Below, one piece after another: positions 44,049 through 53,416 of a DNA stretch of 53,475 bases. The notes under the pieces are model-generated. The model saw nothing but the letters and a program-made list of their open reading frames with translations, made no database searches and was not told the DNA's origin. This stretch comes from Pedosphaera sp. GTDB lineage: Bacteria > Verrucomicrobiota > Verrucomicrobiia > Limisphaerales > F1-12-MAGs170. Made by a program: the position numbers and the translations under genes. The stretch's first letter is position 1; each line of letters begins with the position of its first letter. Location of the stretch: the NCBI GenBank assembly GCA_009695275.1, contig SIBF01000004.1:1-53475 (forward strand). Reading direction: 5' to 3'.

Positions 44049-44193
44049 CAGTTGAAATGGAGAGCGCGGTCGTCTCGACCGCTGTTCTCGGCGTCTCGCC
44101 GAGAACTCAGTGGGCGTGACCAGTCACCAGAGGGTGGGTTTCCGGAGCGGACGAGCTGGTCAGCGAGACGCTGACCAGGGCGTGCGAGACGCA
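44049..44193. repeat. REP-like palindromic doublet (REPIN-like), intergenic
   Basis: Ends are ggagagcgcggtcgtctcgaccgc and gcgtgcgagacgcacgcgctcccc. Internal hairpins are gttctcggcg-tctc-gccgagaac and ctggtcagcg-agac-gctgaccag. Lies between convergent genes. Confidence 0.75.
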
Positions 44194-44219
44194 CGCGCTC
44201 CCCAATTGCGACTGAATAG

Positions 44220-45454: not shown

Positions 45455-48400
45455 TCACGCCAGGAGTGCTTTGGCCTTTGCCAACGCCTCGTCCAGCTTG
45501 CCCGGATCCTTGCCGCCACCGCGTGCGTTGTCGGGTTTGCCGCCGCCTTTGCCACCGACGATGGGGGCGATCTGCTGGATGATCTTTCCGGCCTGCACCT
45601 TCGCGGTGAAGTCCGGTGAGACGGAGGCGACCAGTGAGACGGCGTTGTTCGCTGCCCCACCGAGGACGATAACACCCTTGAACCGGCTCTTAAGCGCATC
45701 CACCACGGCTTGGAGATAATCCGCGTCGCCATCGGGGAAACCCTGCGTGATGAGCGGGATGCCGTTGACCGTCTCCGACCGGGTGAGCAACCAGGCCGCG
45801 GTCTGCGCCGCGTTTCGGGCGATGGACGTCTTGAGCGCCTTCTCCGACTCCTTCTGCTGCGCGAGCAGGCTCTCGACTTTCTTCTCCAACTCGGCGACGG
45901 GGGAATTCAACTTTCCCGCGACGGTGCGAAGGAGGTGAAGTTGCTGGTTCGCGAGTTCGTAAGCGGTGAGGCCGGCAACGGCTTCGATACGGCGCACGCC
46001 GGCAGCAATGGCGTTCTCGCTCACGATGCGGAACAGGCCAATCTCGCCTGTCGCACGGGTGTGGGTGCCGCCGCAGAGTTCCATTGAGTAACCATCCAGT
46101 TTGTTCGCCGCGCCGCCGATCTGGACGACGCGTACGGTGTCGCCGTATTTGTCGCCGAAGAATTGCATCACGTCCTTGCGCGATTTCACGTCGGCGTAGG
46201 GGACTTCGGTCCACGAGACGCCGGTGTTTTCAAGAATGCGTTCGTTGACGAGTTTCTCGATGTCGGCAACCTGCGCGGGTGTAAGCGGCGCGCTGTTGAA
46301 GTCGAAAGTCAGCTTGTCCGGGCCGACGAATGAACCTTTTTGCGACGCTTCCTGGCTTACGACTTCGTGCAGCGCCCAGTGGAGCAAGTGCGTGACGGTG
46401 TGGTGACGTTGGATGGCACTGCGGCGTTCGTGATCGACGGTGAGAAGGACTTCCGAACCGACAATTGGCAGCGCGTCGCCAGACGCGCTGGGAGCGCGAC
46501 CGTCCCGGTCGCCCTGCTGCGCGTCTCGCGCAGCAGATCGGTGGGGGTGGAAAACGAGAAACGTTGAGGAACTCGCGGCACCCTCGCGCGGGGAATCGGT
46601 CGGCGAGACGCCGACCGATGCGACCGGGACGGTCGCGCTCCCCTCTTCGATGAAATGGAGCCAGGTGTTGCCGGATTTTTGCGTGTTGGTGATGCGCCAG
46701 AGCTGGCCGCCGCCATTCAATTCGCCGGTGTCACCGACCTGGCCGCCCATCTCGGCGTAGCAGGCGGAAGCATCGAGGATGACAGCGGTCTTGTCCTTGA
46801 GCGAGACGACCTCCAGGACTTTGGCTTGGACGGCGAGGTGCTCGAAGCCGACGAACTTCGTGGGTGTCGTGGTCTCGATTTTCGAAAGTGAAATGACTTC
46901 CTTCTTCTGCGCGGCACGGGCGCGGGCGCGCTGCTCTTTCATCAGCTCTTCAAAGCCCTCCACGTCCACCGTCAGGCCACGTTCGCGCGCCATCAACTCG
47001 GTGAGGTCGAGCGGGAAGCCCTGCTCGTCATAAAGCCGGAACGCGAACGCACCTGAGATTTGGGCAGGGATGGCTTGGGGAGCGCGCCCGCCCCGGGCGC
47101 TGTTTCCCGCGCCCTCGCGGGAAACGGTCGGGCGTGGGACGTCACCGGACGCCGAGATTTCATTGTGCGTTCCCGAGCCGCCCGGGGCGGGCGCGCTCCC
47201 TGGCGCATCGGGAGTCCACAGCCAGCGATAATTCTCCGACGAGGGAACCACGGCGTTGTCCCAGGGATTGCGGCAGATGTAATGAAACTTCTCTTCCAAG
47301 TCCGAGTCGCCTCGCATCAGGCGGTCAAAAAAATCTTCCTCCCAAATATGAACTCCAGAGACCTTGGCCGCTTTGTTGATCTTGTGTGCGGTCGTGGACT
47401 TGATTCCGTGGAGGATTTCTCCGAGCGGATAAAAGACCGGTTTGCCGTCTTTGTCTTGCTCCTTGATTTGGGGTTCGAACAGCAGGTGAACATGGTCGGG
47501 CATCACGCGCGCGGCAAAAAGTTGATACTGCCGATGGGTGTGAGCATAGAGAACGCTCTCCAGCACGATGTCGCGCTCGGCCGGAGTGAGTTGCCGTTTC
47601 TCTCGCGTGGAGAAGGTCACCATGTATTTGCCCCAGGGTCGTTCGAAATGCGGCAGGCGTCTTTTGGAATAGGTAGCACCGGGGTTGTCGGACGCTCTGG
47701 GGCCGACCGCGAGGGCGCGGTCGGCTGCGCCCGGGGCGGGCGCGCTCCCCATCACCAATGGAAGCGGCGATCCCGCAGTCATGTGTGTCTTGTTTCCAAG
47801 TGTAATTCGAGCGGGACCACCCTGAATCAGACTCGCTTCCTCGTTGAAGAGCGCGATACCTTTGTCGAGCGTCTTGTTAAACGCCTCCTCCTCACGCTGG
47901 ATGACCTCCTGCACATGGGCTTTCCGGGCGCGAATTTCAGGGAAGACATCGCCCATTGTGTCGGCGAGCACGTCCACGAGCTTGTAGAAGAACGGTTGGT
48001 GGAAGCCGAGCGTGCGGCCGTAGCGCACGGCGCGGCGCAGGATGCGGCGGAGGACGTAGTTGCGGTCGGTGTTGCCGGGTTGGATGCCGTCGGCAATCGC
48101 AAACGAGAGCGTGCGGATGTGATCGGCAATAACCCGGAAGGCGATATCGAGCGCGATTTGCTCCGCACCATGGGCAGCGCGACCGTCCCGGTCGCTCTGT
48201 TGCGCGTCTCGCGCAACAGCCCCGGGGGTGTGGGAAGCGAGAGATGTTGAGGAACTCGCGGCACCCTCGCGCGCGGAATCGGTCGGCGGGACGCCGACCG
48301 ATGCGACCGGGACGGTCGCGCTCCCCGTCGCTTCGCGACGTAGCTTTTCCTCGGTCGCAGCGTCGGGTGTCCAGAGCCATCGATAGTTTTCCGTGGATGG

Positions 48401-49867
48401 CGCGACGCCGGAATCCCACGGGTTGCGGCAGATGTAGTGGAACTTCTCTTCGAGATCGGCGTCGCCACGAATCATGCGGTCGAACGATTCGTTCTCCCAC
48501 ACTTGGCCCGTGGTGTTTTCCGCCTTGTTGATCTCGTGGGCGGTGAACGATTTGATTGAGTGCATCAACTCGGACAGCGGCCAGAACACGGGCTTGCCTT
48601 CCTTGTCCTCCTCTTTGATCTGCGGCTCGAACAGGAAATGAACGTGATCGGGCATGACGCAGGCGGCATACATCTGATAGCGGCGCTGATCGTGTCCGAA
48701 AAGGAGGCTCTTGAGCACGATGTCCTGCGCTTGCGGCGAAAGCTGACGACGCTCGCGCGTTGTGAAACTAACCATGTATTTCGCCCACGGATGCTCGAAG
48801 TGCGGAAGGCGGCGCTTGTAGTAGGTAGCTTGAGGAGCGCGACCGTCACGGTCGCTCTGCTGCGCGTCCCGCGCGGCAGATCCGGGAGCGTGGGAAGCAG
48901 ATGATGCCGTTGGACTCGTCGCGCGCGTGGGATCGGGCGGCGGGACGCCGACCGGGGCGACCGGGACGGTCGCGCTCCCCGCTCCCTGCGGGAGTGTGCT
49001 GCCATAGCGTTTTCCACTCATTGCTTCCAGCGCGTCGAAGATCGGCCGAAAGATGTCGGTTTCATAGTTGGAGATTCTGGCGTTGGCGAAATCGGTCAGA
49101 CCCTTTGTGCCCTGCATGATGCTCGTGACGCGCTCGAAGCCCATGCCCGTATCCACGTGCTGGGCAGGCAACGGGGAGAATGTGCCGTCCGGGTTCGCGT
49201 TGAACTGGATGAAGACCAGGTTCCAGATCTCGATGCAGCGGGCGTCGCCTTTGTTGACAAGTGAACCCTTGGTGTCGCCAGCGGGCGTCAAATCAACGTG
49301 CAGTTCGGAGCAGGGACCGCATGGCCCGGTCTCACCCATCATCCAGAAGTTGTCTTTCTTGTTGCCGTTGACAATGTGGGCGGCGGGATCGAGGCCGACG
49401 CTGCGGAACTTTTCGGCCCAGAAGTTCCATGCTTCCTCGTCGCGCTCGGCAGGATCACCAATGGATTTGTCCGGATTGTAAATCGTGGCATAGAGCCGTT
49501 GGGGCGGAAATTTCCAGACACCGATAACCAATTCCCACGCCCACTCAATAGCCTCTTTCTTGAAGTAATCGCCGAAGGACCAGTTGCCGAGCATTTCGAA
49601 GAACGTGTGGTGGTAGGTATCAAGGCCGACGTCGTCGAGGTCGTTGTGCTTGCCGCCGGCGCGGATGCACTTCTGGGTGTCGGCGGCGCGGCCGGGTGTG
49701 TAGGGGCACCTGGTCTGGCCGAGGAAGATGGGCACGAACTGGTTCATGCCGGCGTTCGTGAACAGGAGGTTCGGCGAATCGGGCATTAGCGAGGACGATG
49801 GGACGATGGAGTGCTGCTTCGACTTGAAGAAGTCGAGAAACGACTGGCGGATTTGCGAACTCGTCAT
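45455..49867 (-). CDS. alaS: Alanine--tRNA ligase with three in-frame REP/RAYT insertions (1470 aa)
   Basis: ATG 49867 (MTSSQIRQSFLDFF). FTNAGMNQF, RAGGKHNDLDDVG, HHTFFEMLGNWSFGDYFK, WMMGETGPCGPCSE, VDTGMGFERV; FRVIADHIRTL; FRLYDEQGFPLDLT; editing HTVTHLLHWAL and CGGTHT; C-terminal GGGGKPDNARGGG. A single ORF with no internal stops. Confidence 0.9.
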   Translation of the reverse strand: MTSSQIRQSFLDFFKSKQHSIVPSSSLMPDSPNLLFTNAGMNQFVPIFLGQTRCPYTPGRAADTQKCIRAGGKHNDLDDVGLDTYHHTFFEMLGNWSFGDYFKKEAIEWAWELVIGVWKFPPQRLYATIYNPDKSIGDPAERDEEAWNFWAEKFRSVGLDPAAHIVNGNKKDNFWMMGETGPCGPCSELHVDLTPAGDTKGSLVNKGDARCIEIWNLVFIQFNANPDGTFSPLPAQHVDTGMGFERVTSIMQGTKGLTDFANARISNYETDIFRPIFDALEAMSGKRYGSTLPQGAGSATVPVAPVGVPPPDPTRATSPTASSASHAPGSAARDAQQSDRDGRAPQATYYKRRLPHFEHPWAKYMVSFTTRERRQLSPQAQDIVLKSLLFGHDQRRYQMYAACVMPDHVHFLFEPQIKEEDKEGKPVFWPLSELMHSIKSFTAHEINKAENTTGQVWENESFDRMIRGDADLEEKFHYICRNPWDSGVAPSTENYRWLWTPDAATEEKLRREATGSATVPVASVGVPPTDSAREGAASSSTSLASHTPGAVARDAQQSDRDGRAAHGAEQIALDIAFRVIADHIRTLSFAIADGIQPGNTDRNYVLRRILRRAVRYGRTLGFHQPFFYKLVDVLADTMGDVFPEIRARKAHVQEVIQREEEAFNKTLDKGIALFNEEASLIQGGPARITLGNKTHMTAGSPLPLVMGSAPAPGAADRALAVGPRASDNPGATYSKRRLPHFERPWGKYMVTFSTREKRQLTPAERDIVLESVLYAHTHRQYQLFAARVMPDHVHLLFEPQIKEQDKDGKPVFYPLGEILHGIKSTTAHKINKAAKVSGVHIWEEDFFDRLMRGDSDLEEKFHYICRNPWDNAVVPSSENYRWLWTPDAPGSAPAPGGSGTHNEISASGDVPRPTVSREGAGNSARGGRAPQAIPAQISGAFAFRLYDEQGFPLDLTELMARERGLTVDVEGFEELMKEQRARARAAQKKEVISLSKIETTTPTKFVGFEHLAVQAKVLEVVSLKDKTAVILDASACYAEMGGQVGDTGELNGGGQLWRITNTQKSGNTWLHFIEEGSATVPVASVGVSPTDSPREGAASSSTFLVFHPHRSAARDAQQGDRDGRAPSASGDALPIVGSEVLLTVDHERRSAIQRHHTVTHLLHWALHEVVSQEASQKGSFVGPDKLTFDFNSAPLTPAQVADIEKLVNERILENTGVSWTEVPYADVKSRKDVMQFFGDKYGDTVRVVQIGGAANKLDGYSMELCGGTHTRATGEIGLFRIVSENAIAAGVRRIEAVAGLTAYELANQQLHLLRTVAGKLNSPVAELEKKVESLLAQQKESEKALKTSIARNAAQTAAWLLTRSETVNGIPLITQGFPDGDADYLQAVVDALKSRFKGVIVLGGAANNAVSLVASVSPDFTAKVQAGKIIQQIAPIVGGKGGGKPDNARGGGKDPGKLDEALAKAKALLA
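46490..46642. repeat. REP doublet family A (insertion 3 in alaS), 153 bp
   Basis: Exact 23-nt inverted termini gggagcgcgaccgtcccggtcgc / gcgaccgggacggtcgcgctccc, plus inner hairpins with tctc/gaga loops. Translated as 51 codons, GSATVPVASVGVSPTDS...DRDGRAP. Confidence 0.85.
47078..47200. repeat. REP doublet family B (C-terminal flank of insertion 2), 123 bp
   Basis: Exact 22-nt inverted termini gggagcgcgcccgccccgggcg / cgcccggggcgggcgcgctccc. Inner hairpin tttcccgcg-ccct-cgcgggaaa. Translated as 41 codons. Confidence 0.85.
47201..47727 (-). mobile_element. RAYT-type (IS200-like Y1/HUH) transposase module 2, fused in-frame inside alaS
   Basis: YSKRRLPHFERPWGKYMVTF..., HUH motif PDHVHLLF, and catalytic-Tyr motif KFHYICRNPW. 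No start or stop of its own; same frame as alaS. Confidence 0.8.
47728..47749. repeat. Single family-B REP (N-terminal flank of insertion 2)
   Basis: cgcccggggcgggcgcgctccc, identical to the right arm at 47179..47200. Preceded by the hairpin gccgaccgc-gaggg-gcggtcggc. Confidence 0.75.
48173..48325. repeat. REP doublet family A (C-terminal flank of insertion 1), 153 bp
   Basis: Left arm ggcagcgcgaccgtcccggtcgc (1 substitution), right arm gcgaccgggacggtcgcgctccc. Same internal layout as 46490..46642. Confidence 0.85.
48326..48832 (-). mobile_element. RAYT-type (IS200-like Y1/HUH) transposase module 1, fused in-frame inside alaS
   Basis: YYKRRLPHFEHPWAKYMVSF..., HUH motif PDHVHFLF, and KFHYICRNPW. 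169 codons, no stop, same frame as alaS. Confidence 0.8.
48833..48979. repeat. REP doublet family A (N-terminal flank of insertion 1), 147 bp
   Basis: Left arm aggagcgcgaccgtcacggtcgc (2 substitutions), right arm gcgaccgggacggtcgcgctccc. Translated as 49 codons, GSATVPVAPVGVPPPD...DRDGRAP. Confidence 0.85.
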
Positions 49868-52149: not shown

Positions 52150-52866
52150 TCAGGCTCCGGGTGAAAGTGCCACCCGCAGAAAGTTCACAAGGTTGAAGAA
52201 GGCGTGCATGACGATTGAACTTAGCAGGTTGTTGGTGCGCTCGTAAACAAAGGTGAGCATCAGAGCCAGCACGGTGAATGGAAGGATGGTCATTCGATTA
52301 CTATGGATCACCGCGAACAATAGCGACGTGCCCCAAAGCGCCATGCGCGGAAAACCCAACTGCTTGACCGATGGATAGAGGATGCCGCGAAAGACAATCT
52401 CCTCCGCGACCGGTGCCAGGATGACAGCCGCAAAAAAGATCGTGACACTCAAAGGCCAGCCCGGCTGTTTTTGAAGCATTTGCACGGGAGCCTGCAGCTC
52501 CGTCTTCATGCCCAGCAATTGGAAAATAATTGCGGAGAGTTCGCCCAGTCCAATGATCAGCGGGAGAGTGATGACACCGATCAATATTCCGAAGCCCGCC
52601 GCCCGCCACATTCGCGGCGTTGAGAAACCGAAGGCCAGCCCGCTGCCTGTTCCGTGCTCGCGCAGCAGCCATGGTAAAAGCGCAAGGACCACTCCATGAA
52701 AACTCAATGTGCCGCCGATGATCGTGGCATAGTCCTCCGGCACCCGGATCGGCGCATGTTCTGAGGTGAACCACGCCACAAGCAACATGCCGCCGCAAAA
52801 GCCCGCCATCACCAGAAGCAGATACTGCAAGACGATGTCCATCCGCCATGGTTTCTCCGATAACAT
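52150..52866 (-). CDS. CPBP family intramembrane glutamic endopeptidase (CAAX protease-like)
   Basis: APVAEEIVFRGILY, LLFAVIHSN and MHAFFNLVNF signature motifs; multi-TM. Confidence 0.85.
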   Translation of the reverse strand: MLSEKPWRMDIVLQYLLLVMAGFCGGMLLVAWFTSEHAPIRVPEDYATIIGGTLSFHGVVLALLPWLLREHGTGSGLAFGFSTPRMWRAAGFGILIGVITLPLIIGLGELSAIIFQLLGMKTELQAPVQMLQKQPGWPLSVTIFFAAVILAPVAEEIVFRGILYPSVKQLGFPRMALWGTSLLFAVIHSNRMTILPFTVLALMLTFVYERTNNLLSSIVMHAFFNLVNFLRVALSPGA

Positions 52867-52958
52867 CCGGCGGAAACTAAGCAGCGGCTTCGTGAGTTAC
52901 GATGGAAAAATGAGGTTGGCGCTGATTGCCGAAGGCTCTTATCCGAATCCATGCAACA

Positions 52959-53140
52959 GGAGCGCGGAATTCATTCCGCGTGGATCCTGCAAGGCCCCAA
53001 GGGCTGTAGGCTCGACGACATGCCAAGTGATCAAAAACCAGGTCATAGGAAAGTGACCAACGCGAAAAGCAATTTGCCGCGGCCGAAATCTCCGGCCAAA
53101 GTGGGAATTCCACGCGGCTGCGGAATAAATTCCGCGCTCC
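52959..53140. repeat. REP-like doublet, third family (GGAGCGCGGAAT..ATTCCGC)
   Basis: Left arm ggagcgcggaattcattccgcgtgga. Right arm (reverse complement) ggagcgcggaatttattccgcagccgcgtgga. Accounts for the spurious 138-aa ORF at 52877..53293. Confidence 0.7.
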
Positions 53141-53319
53141 TATTGAATTGTTCCGCATGTCCGCTGCGAGGCCTCCCCCAATTGACTTACACTCGGTGAA
53201 GTAATGAAAGACAAGCTGTTTTGACTGGCTGTCCCTTCGAACGATGCTTTCGCCACCGTAAAGCCCATCGTTGATGGAATGAAGGACTCTCACCGCTTTT
53301 CCATTGAGGGCGCGCTCCC

Positions 53320-53347
53320 AACCTTGAACCTTGAACCTTGAACCTTG
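53320..53347. repeat. Tandem heptamer array (AACCTTG x4)
   Basis: Four perfect copies of aaccttg, directly after a gggcgcgctccc REP-head remnant. Confidence 0.85.
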
Positions 53348-53348
53348 A

Positions 53349-53416
53349 GTCGAGTAGGTCTCCGCGCGGAGAGGCGTCAGGTGGGAAAGAGAGCTGACCG
53401 CGGAGACTTACTCGAC
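53349..53416. other. Long hairpin (18-bp stem, 32-nt loop) of unknown function
   Basis: gtcgagtaggtctccgcg ... cgcggagacttactcgac, with one G-T (G-U) position. Adjacent to the heptamer array at the window edge. Confidence 0.6.

Follow-up and report, generated by a model that had tools for sequence, protein, structure and literature searches.

Among transposase-like genes, RAYTs form an unusual class, reported to be single-copy and vertically inherited. The locus described here is an insert in the alanyl-tRNA synthetase gene (alaS) of a window that comprises the whole 53,475-nucleotide stretch of DNA analysed. With the known REP/RAYT systems (REPtrons, REPIN-RAYT; E. coli TnpA_REP, 4er8, and the Pseudomonas RAYTs), it shares a Y1 HUH transposase of the RAYT family, inverted REP hairpins of its own flanking the RAYT, co-variation of RAYT type with REP family, long hairpins formed by REP doublets, cognate REPs that are dispersed (here in related genomes), and an old age with a dN/dS of ~0.05. 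Unlike in those systems, the RAYT in alaS is not free-standing: it lies in-frame in an essential gene without a start or stop codon inside its ends, its REPs would themselves be translated, a single alaS can accommodate a pair of RAYTs with different specificities as well as a solo REPIN, and its presence is patchy among close relatives. The analysis documents the anatomy of the insert, its family and predicted fold, the selection on it, its co-variation with REPs and its distribution among relatives. The interval is probably a complete, long-lived REP/RAYT unit (type T2, with cognate REP-B terminal inverted repeats) that would be translated as part of AlaRS.

Three other kinds of element invite comparison. 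Intragenic REPs have been described earlier, in greatest abundance in the verrucomicrobium Opitutus terrae (PMC3733652). As with these and other intragenic REPs and MITEs, and with the Rickettsia palindromic elements (RPEs) (PMC3733652, PMC10969869), in-frame palindromic repeats are tolerated as extra surface peptides, here in AlaRS and, in related genomes, in ValRS, PurL and an FG-GAP protein; unlike these short repeats of non-coding type (20-150 bp), the alaS insert carries a whole repeat-recognising transposase domain. Elements of the IS200/IS605 group (TnpA; IS608, ISDra2) have what models suggest is the same catalytic fold, HUH/Tyr chemistry and recognition of subterminal single-stranded DNA hairpins, whereas at their ends the left and the right hairpin differ and lie on one strand; the alaS unit ends in inverted REP repeats, has no tnpB and does not recur as a set of identical copies. 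Inteins and homing endonuclease genes likewise place the enzyme of a selfish element in-frame in a conserved essential gene, with a patchy distribution and a host function that must survive. Unlike inteins, which sit in conserved active-site motifs, the alaS insert sits in variable loops, has no Hint domain or splice-junction residues, and presumably stays in the mature protein. A literature search for a RAYT or IS200 transposase inside alaS or another synthetase found nothing relevant.

The alaS gene and its three in-frame inserts

The features of the gene and its surroundings are as follows.

45455-49867, minus strand: alaS (alanyl-tRNA synthetase), from the ORF list and Pfam, with inserts mapped against an insert-free core
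48173-48979, minus strand: REP-A/RAYT unit of type T1 at site S1 (module 1), consisting of a REP-A doublet, the RAYT core (48359-48829) and a REP-A doublet
47750-47821, minus strand: 24 lineage-specific loop residues, GGPARITLGNKTHMTAGSPLPLVM, directly upstream of the T2 unit
47076-47751, minus strand: REP-B/RAYT unit of type T2 at site S2 (module 2), with 45-nt terminal inverted repeats; equivalent unit and ends in relatives L002 and L003
46490-46642, minus strand: solo REP-A doublet (REPIN) at site S3, in-frame in a loop of the editing-domain beta-barrel, adding 51 aa
44059-44203, no strand assigned: intergenic REP doublet of a third variant (GAGAGCGCGGTCGTCTCGACCGC / GGGAGCGCGTGCGTCTCGCACGC) that shares the two-hairpin architecture; DNA fold z = -7.1

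The alaS ORF encodes 1470 aa, of which ~897 aa belong to the AlaRS core and the rest to the three inserts, and its frame is unbroken through all 1470 codons. Pfam recovered tRNA-synt_2c, tRNA_SAD and DHHA1 together with two Y1_Tnp stretches (50.1 bits for the whole alaS protein; cut-off 23); Rfam and tRNA scans of the window gave no matches. The insertion points S1, S2 and S3 are hypervariable AlaRS loops in which relatives hold many unrelated inserts, and this fits selection at permissive sites; selection or a targeting preference had been proposed originally. S2 is an insertion-tolerant surface loop in the tRNA-recognition domain, immediately ahead of the conserved QISGAFAFRLYD segment. The 24 residues upstream of the T2 unit had been suspected to be a decayed remnant of an older insertion; this found no support, as GGPARITLGNKTHMTAGSPLPLVM has no similarity to REPs, to the loci or to the inserts of relatives, and the loop is hypervariable anyway.

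Anatomy of the REP-B/RAYT unit at S2

The unit has the following parts, listed in the direction of translation.

47727-47749, minus strand: REP-B copy at the N-terminal (5') end, an exact pattern match, with the conceptual translation GSAPAPGA
47702-47725, minus strand: second hairpin beside the 5' REP-B, with a 10-bp stem and a conserved inner stem and loop (CGCG/CCCT/CGCG); DNA fold z = -4.1
47204-47677, minus strand: RAYT catalytic core of module 2, 158 aa, from tblastn, NF047646, AF2 and the 4er8 fold match
47477-47500, minus strand: HUH motif PDHVHLLF, from a motif search
47261-47290, minus strand: Tyr motif KFHYICRNPW, from a motif search
47078-47200, minus strand: REP-B doublet (REPIN-like) at the C-terminal (3') end, consisting of REP-B (47078-47100), a hairpin (47103-47124), a spacer and an inverted REP-B (47178-47200)

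A second HUH/Tyr module had been predicted at 47078-47749, flanked by a REP variant of its own that forms a doublet on the C-terminal side and a single REP with an extra hairpin on the N-terminal side, and all of these elements were recovered at those coordinates to within 1 nt. The insert measures 672 bp, i.e., 224 codons, and is in-frame within alaS: that frame contains no stop, and each of the other two minus-strand frames contains 3. Its ends are inverted repeats of 45 nt (47076-47120 and 47707-47751) that are 89% complementary. Inside these ends the unit lacks both a start and a stop codon, so it would be read through within the alaS mRNA; its junctions in the window are ...VM/GSAP and RAPQ/AIPAQISG. 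The REP-B pattern, GGGAGCGCGCCCGCCCCGGGCGC, matched at 47078-47100 (plus strand), 47178-47200 (minus strand, 1 mismatch) and 47727-47749 (minus strand), whereas the REP in module 1 and at S3 is GGGAGCGCGACCGTCCCGGTCGC (REP-A). The arms of the doublet (47078-47099 and 47179-47200) are 100% complementary, and as single-stranded DNA the doublet forms one long hairpin (-57.4 kcal/mol, z = -7.6); it is a REPIN in having inverted REPs, a long hairpin and a family that recurs at other loci. GC3 of the RAYT core of module 2 is 0.665, below the 0.78-0.80 of alaS. The C-terminal end in relatives, e.g., L002, consists of the outer REP and the hairpin only.

Module 2 is a RAYT by motifs and predicted fold

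Module 2 has the two marks of a RAYT, an HUH metal-binding motif and a catalytic Tyr in a Y-x-x-x-N-P helix, and its PDHVHLL and FHYICRNPW segments align to PEHMH and YIYINP of 4er8. Across the alaS-embedded modules, the HUH histidines are kept in 129 of 130 and the catalytic Tyr in 130 of 130. The profile NF047646 (REP_Tyr_transpos) matched module 2 at positions 4-145 of 146 with 74.1 bits, below the equivalog cut-off of 80; module 1 (T1) scored 80.7 bits, above that cut-off of 80. The RAYT model gave module 2 74 bits, versus 22 bits for the IS200 model. In an AF2 model of module 2, the RAYT core reached a pLDDT of 82-95, and the best Foldseek match in the PDB was the complex of TnpA_REP with a REP hairpin, 4er8_A (E = 7.3e-7, target TM 0.60), with further matches to TnpA structures of IS200/IS605. 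Module 2 is thus predicted to have the RAYT/IS200-type fold. In both AF2 models, pLDDT was < 50 in the REP-coded flanks and 79-95 in the RAYT core; the full-length model of P0048, the confidence of which is low overall (pLDDT 69.9, pTM 0.41), was used for this pattern of a domain between disordered linkers and not for domain placement.

Two other identities were considered and rejected. An IS200/IS605 insertion sequence is contradicted by the score of NF033573 (transpos_IS200), 22.3 bits against a cut-off of 55, by ends that are 45-nt inverted repeats, and by the mere 70% identity of the two RAYT copies in the window. As for an intein, no Hint or intein Pfam family was present in the 1522-aa ORF, and there were no splice-junction residues (M/G...Q/A in the window, L/G...Q/I in relatives).

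Modules 1 and 2 belong to different RAYT lineages with cognate REPs

The identity of modules 1 and 2, estimated beforehand at about 70%, came to 70.1% in an alignment of 154 codons and to 70.25% in a tblastn comparison across 158 aa. The prediction of two separate lineages had left room for the two being recent duplicates. A recent duplication of module 1 as the origin of module 2 was ruled out by the saturated dS between them. Types T1 and T2 were sisters in 0 of 300 NJ bootstraps, and the deepest split with support in the family, {T2, T4, free} versus {T1, T5, T3} (80% NJ bootstrap support), separates them, so they are not recent duplicates. UPGMA placed all alaS-embedded RAYTs in one cluster apart from the free ones; the corresponding split received 53% in the NJ bootstrap, which does not cleanly confirm that cluster, and monophyly of the embedded RAYTs is therefore not claimed. 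P0124 and P0238, taken for ‘free’ close relatives, proved to lie within alaS genes fragmented by assembly frameshifts.

At least 130 alaS-embedded RAYT modules, of five types (T1-T5) in loops S1-S3, were found in Verrucomicrobiota, and each type has its own flank signature. REP-B peptide signatures accompany 54 of the 58 T2 modules upstream and 51 of 58 downstream, and REP-A signatures accompany T1 modules in 30/38 and 34/38, respectively; cross-associations between T1 or T2 and the other REP were absent among the 130 modules. The pairing of RAYT type with REP is strict for T1 and T2, which bears out the prediction that each lineage has its own REP.

Whether REP-B occurs elsewhere had been raised as a check on that prediction. 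At least ~30 copies outside alaS were found among the matches listed in Verrucomicrobiota genomes, in which REP-A is also dispersed outside alaS; REP-B was absent outside alaS in the 53 kb window and in ~50 kb flanks in three relatives. A degenerate REP pattern had 10 matches in the window, versus 0.02 expected by chance. After each REP lies a second hairpin, the stem of which varies by compensatory changes: this module adjoins 28 of the 38 REP-B copies, and its stem arms come in 18 versions. It was scored by direct stem search; RNAalifold did not detect it among the REP-B copies, owing to unequal loop lengths and slippage in the alignment.

The T2 unit is old and maintained

Among four sequences compared, the T2 module has a dN/dS of 0.04-0.07 and a dS of 1.1-1.9, equal to the dS of alaS; dN/dS of the AlaRS parts, compared with relatives, is 0.05-0.2. 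Purifying selection acts on the RAYT domain as strongly as it does on the catalytic domain of AlaRS. With dS equal to that of alaS and dN/dS at ~0.05, the insertion is as old as the divergence of its carriers. The termini of the unit (49 nt on the left, 48 nt on the right) are identical in the window, L002 and L003, while identity at third codon positions in the RAYT core beside them is only 0.47-0.61; the ends are thus nucleotide-identical between lineages in which synonymous sites are near saturation. The right junction RAPQ/ISG is common to many lineages. The T2 unit is a maintained resident of long standing rather than a recent arrival, and fresh colonisation of alaS is not supported.

Distribution and alternative explanations

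All 120 of the best full-length matches to the window protein have a RAYT in alaS, and among the 120 AlaRS nearest in core sequence only ~10 have one. On an NJ host tree, T2 at S2 requires 37 state changes for 55 carriers, and RAYT and host distances correlate weakly (r = 0.20); this test of co-divergence is not decisive because the AlaRS tree is star-like. Patchiness and weak correlation are easier to reconcile with turnover or horizontal exchange than with simple, stable inheritance. One rather unlikely explanation takes this further, and sees the REP-RAYT-REP cassette as a selfish element that homes between alaS alleles and loops, using REPs as landing pads for recombination or for strand exchange catalysed by the RAYT, and is lost by precise excision, as inteins and homing endonucleases do in conserved essential genes, though without splicing. 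In its favour, the nearest relatives of the window AlaRS hold different RAYT types at different sites, REP-only doublets occupy the same loops (e.g., S3 in the window), and a T2 unit is found at S1 in L003 with its nucleotide-identical ends intact. However, dS of the RAYT core in the four sequences is not below that of alaS, giving no sign of recent horizontal spread, and the patchiness may be overestimated on a star-like, NJ-based AlaRS tree.

It is unlikely that two different REP/RAYT elements entered alaS independently by ordinary transposition and were kept only because they were in-frame. Such entries would suit the deep divergence of T1 and T2, never sisters and separated by the 80% split, and the existence of relatives with T1 only, T2 only or both in alaS. 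They would also suit permissive loops as target sites, and the occurrence of types at more than one loop: T2, besides S2, at S1 in P0036/L003 and at S3 in P0094 and P0107, and T3 and T5 at both S1 and S2. Yet the insertion is as old as the divergence of its carriers, with a right junction that is identical in many lineages, and T1-T5 modules were recovered in alaS only and in no other host gene, the ‘free’ members being alaS fragments. Moreover, a single ancestral entry followed by diversification costs no more steps than two entries.

Very unlikely, too, is an exapted RAYT, domesticated for a synthetase-related or regulatory role such as the binding of nucleic-acid hairpins, with REPs that merely code for linkers. 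The strong purifying selection, the conserved catalytic residues and the long persistence within an essential gene would be expected of such a domain, but ~90% of equally close AlaRS are without it, and it occurs as five types in three different loops. The hairpin ends are conserved as DNA, third codon positions included, beyond what linker coding needs, and the cognate REPs are dispersed genome-wide in relatives. Finally, although the protein of the window is absent from the public protein collections searched and the genome was viewed through 53 kb, a misassembly across repeats or a decaying alaS with an intact copy elsewhere is scarcely credible: over 120 independent assemblies, drawn from several sources, share this architecture, its recurrence in the best 120 matches rules out an assembly artefact, the frame is intact over 1470 codons, and the AlaRS parts evolve at a dN/dS of 0.05-0.2.

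A REP/RAYT unit probably expressed through alaS

We prefer the reading in which AlaRS is translated together with a long-lived REP/RAYT unit inside it, and this suggests the following mechanism. Upon translation, the GC-rich REP hairpins would give Gly/Ser/Ala/Pro-rich disordered linkers, between which the RAYT could fold as an independent domain, so that the product would be an AlaRS-RAYT chimera. The role of this domain is most likely the usual one of a RAYT, i.e., to bind and cut single-stranded REP hairpins, and a nuclease activity on REP-B would maintain a putative dispersed REP-B (REPIN) population of the genome. The location in alaS may benefit the unit, in that alaS would supply constitutive expression and make it safe from loss by imprecise deletion. 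We extend this only tentatively to the whole gene family: at least five RAYT types, each with its REP family, may live as cassettes without start or stop codons in alaS loops, expressed only as domains of AlaRS. The chimera would then be an active enzyme that maintains REPIN populations, and the cassettes might move between the three loops and between alaS alleles via REP-doublet landing pads, in an intein-like ‘safe harbour’ without protein splicing.

Were RAYTs routinely produced as domains within an essential aminoacyl-tRNA synthetase, this would be a new route to expression and permanence for the enzyme of a mobile element, with loss only by precise removal, and a natural case of whole-domain insertion tolerated by an aaRS. 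The specificity of RAYTs for REPs becomes testable with two cognate pairs in one polypeptide and at least five in one gene family. For annotation, calls of ‘AlaRS/RayT’ fusions in Verrucomicrobiota are real gene structures, not errors, and caution is needed. The phenomenon of repeats translated inside proteins, known from the Rickettsia RPEs, would be widened beyond short palindromes to include the enzyme recognising them; in free-standing relatives, both REPs are likewise read through.

Anatomy of the REP/RAYT unit in alaS

The stretch 47078-47749 lies within alaS, and the product of this ORF (AlaRS) contains the Pfam domains tRNA-synt_2c, tRNA_SAD and DHHA1 together with two separate IS200-like Y1 transposase stretches; a Pfam search of the ORF found no intein or Hint domain. 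Mapping against the insert-free AlaRS core (897 aa) located three in-frame inserts, in loops designated S1, S2 and S3. The S2 insert is the unit under study, and its REP-associated tyrosine transposase (RAYT) is referred to as module 2, with module 1 being the RAYT at S1.

45455-49867, minus strand: alaS (AlaRS) ORF, start at the first plausible ATG, containing 47078-47749
Core position 294: S1 insert, 273 aa
Core position 408: S2 insert (unit under study), 249 aa
Core position 553: S3 insert, 51 aa
47477-47500: HUH motif PDHVHLLF
47261-47290: Tyr motif KFHYICRNPW
47078, 47178 (one mismatch) and 47727: REP-B, GGGAGCGCGCCCGCCCCGGGCGC

The 672 bp of 47078-47749 form 224 codons that are open in the alaS frame, as originally predicted, with three stops in each other minus-strand frame. 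The predicted HUH and Tyr motifs could be placed, and the identity between modules 2 and 1, previously estimated by eye at about 70%, is 70.1-70.3%. The flanking variant, REP-B, is distinct, as had been proposed, from GGGAGCGCGACCGTCCCGGTCGC, the variant of module 1 and of the S3 doublet (REP-A); a degenerate REP pattern gave 10 matches in the window vs 0.02 expected. The arrangement described from sequence also held on folding: the full doublet on the C-terminal side (47078-47200) forms one long hairpin (z = -7.6), and the N-terminal side carries one REP followed by a second hairpin (z = -4.1). The whole unit is bounded by 45-nt inverted repeats. The suggestion that the 24 residues upstream, GGPARITLGNKTHMTAGSPLPLVM (47750-47821), are an older decayed remnant was not upheld, as they matched nothing among the REPs, loci and relatives' inserts, and the loop that holds them varies freely across relatives anyway.

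GC3 of the module 2 core (47204-47677) is 0.665, lower than in module 1 (0.77) and in the AlaRS parts (0.78-0.80). An antisense open frame of 396 aa (47060-48250, plus strand) covers all of the S2 insert and has no family match; it has most likely arisen as a by-product of GC-rich coding on the opposite strand.

The 158-aa core of module 2 aligned end-to-end to the NCBIfam REP-associated tyrosine transposase model at 74.1 bits (equivalog cut-off 80), module 1 reaching 80.7 bits; the IS200 model gave module 2 a far lower score of 22 bits. In the AlphaFold model of the 249-aa insert, the core has a pLDDT of 82-95 and the REP-encoded flanks are disordered (<50). The top solved-structure match is E. 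coli TnpA_REP with bound REP hairpin (4er8, E = 7e-7), followed by IS200/IS605 TnpA.

Age and selection

We compared the window with three relatives for which DNA was fetched (L001, L002 and L003). The module 2 core showed dN of 0.06-0.08, dS of 1.1-1.9 and dN/dS of about 0.04-0.07, a constraint as strong as that on the AlaRS catalytic domain. Since its dS is similar to that of the AlaRS N- and C-terminal parts (0.9-2.0), the module is as old as the divergence of the genes compared. The window, L002 and L003 share identical left (49 nt) and right (48 nt) termini, each composed of REP-B and the second hairpin, while third-codon-position identity in the adjacent RAYT core is just 0.47-0.61. Thus, the hairpin ends are kept as nucleic acid and not as linker peptide.

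RAYT-bearing AlaRS in Verrucomicrobiota

A search with the full protein returned at least 120 Verrucomicrobiota AlaRS of 1084-1408 aa (62-83% identity); all 120 listed carry a RAYT, and the automatic annotation of several reads 'alanyl-tRNA synthetase/REP element-mobilizing transposase RayT'. This list is skewed to carriers because the RAYT raises the bit score. The insert-free core query gives an unbiased view of carrier frequency: about 10 of the 120 best AlaRS matches (about 75-83% identity, most 896-1000 aa) carry a RAYT.

At least 130 embedded modules were mapped, 65 at S1, 62 at S2 and 3 at S3; all of the 130 retain the catalytic Tyr, and 129 retain the HUH histidines. They sort into five types, T1-T5, module 1 belonging to T1 and module 2 to T2. 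REP-B accompanies T2 upstream in 54 and downstream in 51 of 58 cases, and REP-A accompanies T1 in 30 and 34 of 38, respectively. With zero cross-associations, T1 and T2 each pair strictly with one REP family, in line with the prediction of distinct RAYT lineages with cognate REPs. Example sequences of T3, T4 and T5 show flank signatures of their own, counted for T3 only (9/11 downstream, 1/11 upstream). Type is not fixed to site: T2 occurs at S1 in P0036/L003 and at S3 in P0094 and P0107, and T3 and T5 were each found at S1 and S2.

Across the clade S1-S3 are hypervariable, holding tandem peptide repeats, low-complexity sequence, other REP-like doublets and unrelated helical inserts; these positions are evidently insertion-tolerant. 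S1 is a general hotspot of length variation. In RAYT-less proteins (P0243, P0248, P0250, P0254, P0326 and others) it holds tandem peptide repeats of 70-100 aa, such as PKSGCEEPQSG..., GSTDKPxGS... and THQKHEST....

Relationships to free-standing RAYTs

The nearest truly free-standing relatives show 60-69% identity. Two that were examined (L125:5001-5654 and L126:5001-5621), from two genomes, occupy the same pilus-operon slot, in the order PilM (upstream), Amuc_1100, RAYT, a hypothetical gene and, further downstream, a secretin gene. Both ORFs extend across both flanking REPs (GSARASRA...TAREARALP) from a start codon 12-20 codons upstream of the REP, and the stop of L126 overlaps the ATG of the next gene (ATGA). 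In-frame RAYTs may have a second host gene in MetH: in a 265-aa fragment from a 1.3-kb contig (P0236), a MetH homocysteine-binding domain, a REP-coded linker and a free-clade RAYT follow one another in one frame. Sequences of the alaS types that looked 'free' were rejected, being pieces of frameshifted alaS genes. Gene calling on some long-read assemblies (L123, L124) breaks RAYT-bearing alaS into 3-5 genes, probably through frameshift error that yields spurious 'free-standing' RAYT entries in databases.

NJ bootstrap support was 97% for T2, 100% for T3, 96% for T4, 100% for T5, 90% for the free clade and 75% for T1; a split of all embedded from free modules received 53% only. T1 and T2 were never sisters, and the split {T2, T4, free}|{T1, T5, T3} had 80% support; the window's two modules are therefore anciently separated lineages and, with dS between them saturated, not the recent duplicates that the original prediction had set against its reading.

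On an NJ host tree of 232 AlaRS cores, T2 at S2 (55 carriers) required 37 state changes (shuffled-label mean 49.6) and T1 at S1 (38 carriers) 26, and RAYT-host distances correlated weakly (r = 0.20 for T2, 0.47 for T1). This evidence is soft because the AlaRS tree is star-like; it still points to turnover by loss, loop-to-loop relocation or allele exchange, and a fixed ancestral domain would look different.

Dispersed REPs and the proposed role of the unit

REPs were scanned in one genome per species, over at least 119 stretches. The matches listed, three alaS loci included, comprise at least 43 REP-A, 37 REP-B and 34 of a Gemmataceae variant, the great majority of them remote from alaS and any RAYT; REP-B thus occurs elsewhere, as the prediction required. 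MFD05942.bin.1.375, with T1 in its alaS (L071), has REP-A-type sequences on three further contigs, of which those in L058 and L082 are exact REP-A and that in L060 differs by one base. The REP is adjoined by a second hairpin (REP-B, 28/38, 18 arms; REP-A, 35/47, 25 arms) with conserved inner stem and loop and a differing outer stem, the differences being compensatory variation. Several dispersed REP-A or REP-B copies lie in-frame in genes:

L037:3929-7129(-): ValRS
L052:2506-5586(+): ValRS
L048:2677-5181(+): PurL
L101:100-3453(-): FG-GAP/TPR protein

The ValRS insertions occupy homologous sites in the two genomes. The REP is read in the alaS frame (GSATVPVA / GSAPAPGA) in ValRS and PurL, and as GERDRPGRT in the FG-GAP/TPR protein. 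Intragenic REPs are known, and Opitutus terrae, a verrucomicrobium, has the largest number reported (PMC3733652); in-frame RPE and MITE cases have been reviewed (PMC10969869). Our literature search turned up no RAYT described within another gene.

On the reading that the data support best, this is a genuine REP/RAYT unit, long resident in a permissive AlaRS loop and translated with AlaRS. The REP hairpins would double as disordered linkers of an AlaRS-RAYT protein, in which the RAYT is predicted to be a self-folding domain with intact catalytic residues. Its job would likely be the usual RAYT action on dispersed cognate REPs, and the alaS site could provide constitutive expression and shelter from imprecise deletion. 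A homing-like cassette is compatible with the data and overlaps this reading in part. The patchiness, the several sites and the conservation of the ends as DNA speak against pure exaptation into AlaRS function. The original prediction had two lineages colonising the gene independently, and took their staying in frame as a sign of selection or of a targeting preference. Selection at permissive sites stands. The dS values and the shared junctions argue against fresh independent entry; the units are old and maintained, and belong to a pattern seen across the clade. In practical terms, the data rule out an artefact or a pseudogene. A resident unit of this kind is of interest for REP/RAYT biology, mobile elements in essential genes and synthetase architecture.

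Within the 53-kb window, REP-A and REP-B are confined to alaS. Other REP-like elements were also seen:

44059-44203: doublet of a third REP variant, intergenic; heads GAGAGCGCG / GGGAGCGCG; stems GTCGTCTCGAC and TGCGTCTCGCA; two-hairpin architecture as in the alaS REPs (fold z = -7.1); no cognate RAYT in the window
52958-53141: REP-like inverted doublet, head GGAGCGCG then hairpin GGAATTCATTCC, inverted partner ~180 bp off; downstream of the ORF ending at 52150-52866
53321-53350: AACCTTG x4 tandem repeat, directly after a lone GGGAGCGCG head

The Gemmataceae variant is GGGAGCGCGGCCGTCCCGGCCGC, in most cases with CCCT or CCT before it. It is abundant in Planctomycetota (at least 34 matches; L005, L008, L020, L062 and other Gemmataceae MAG loci) and often forms tight doublets.
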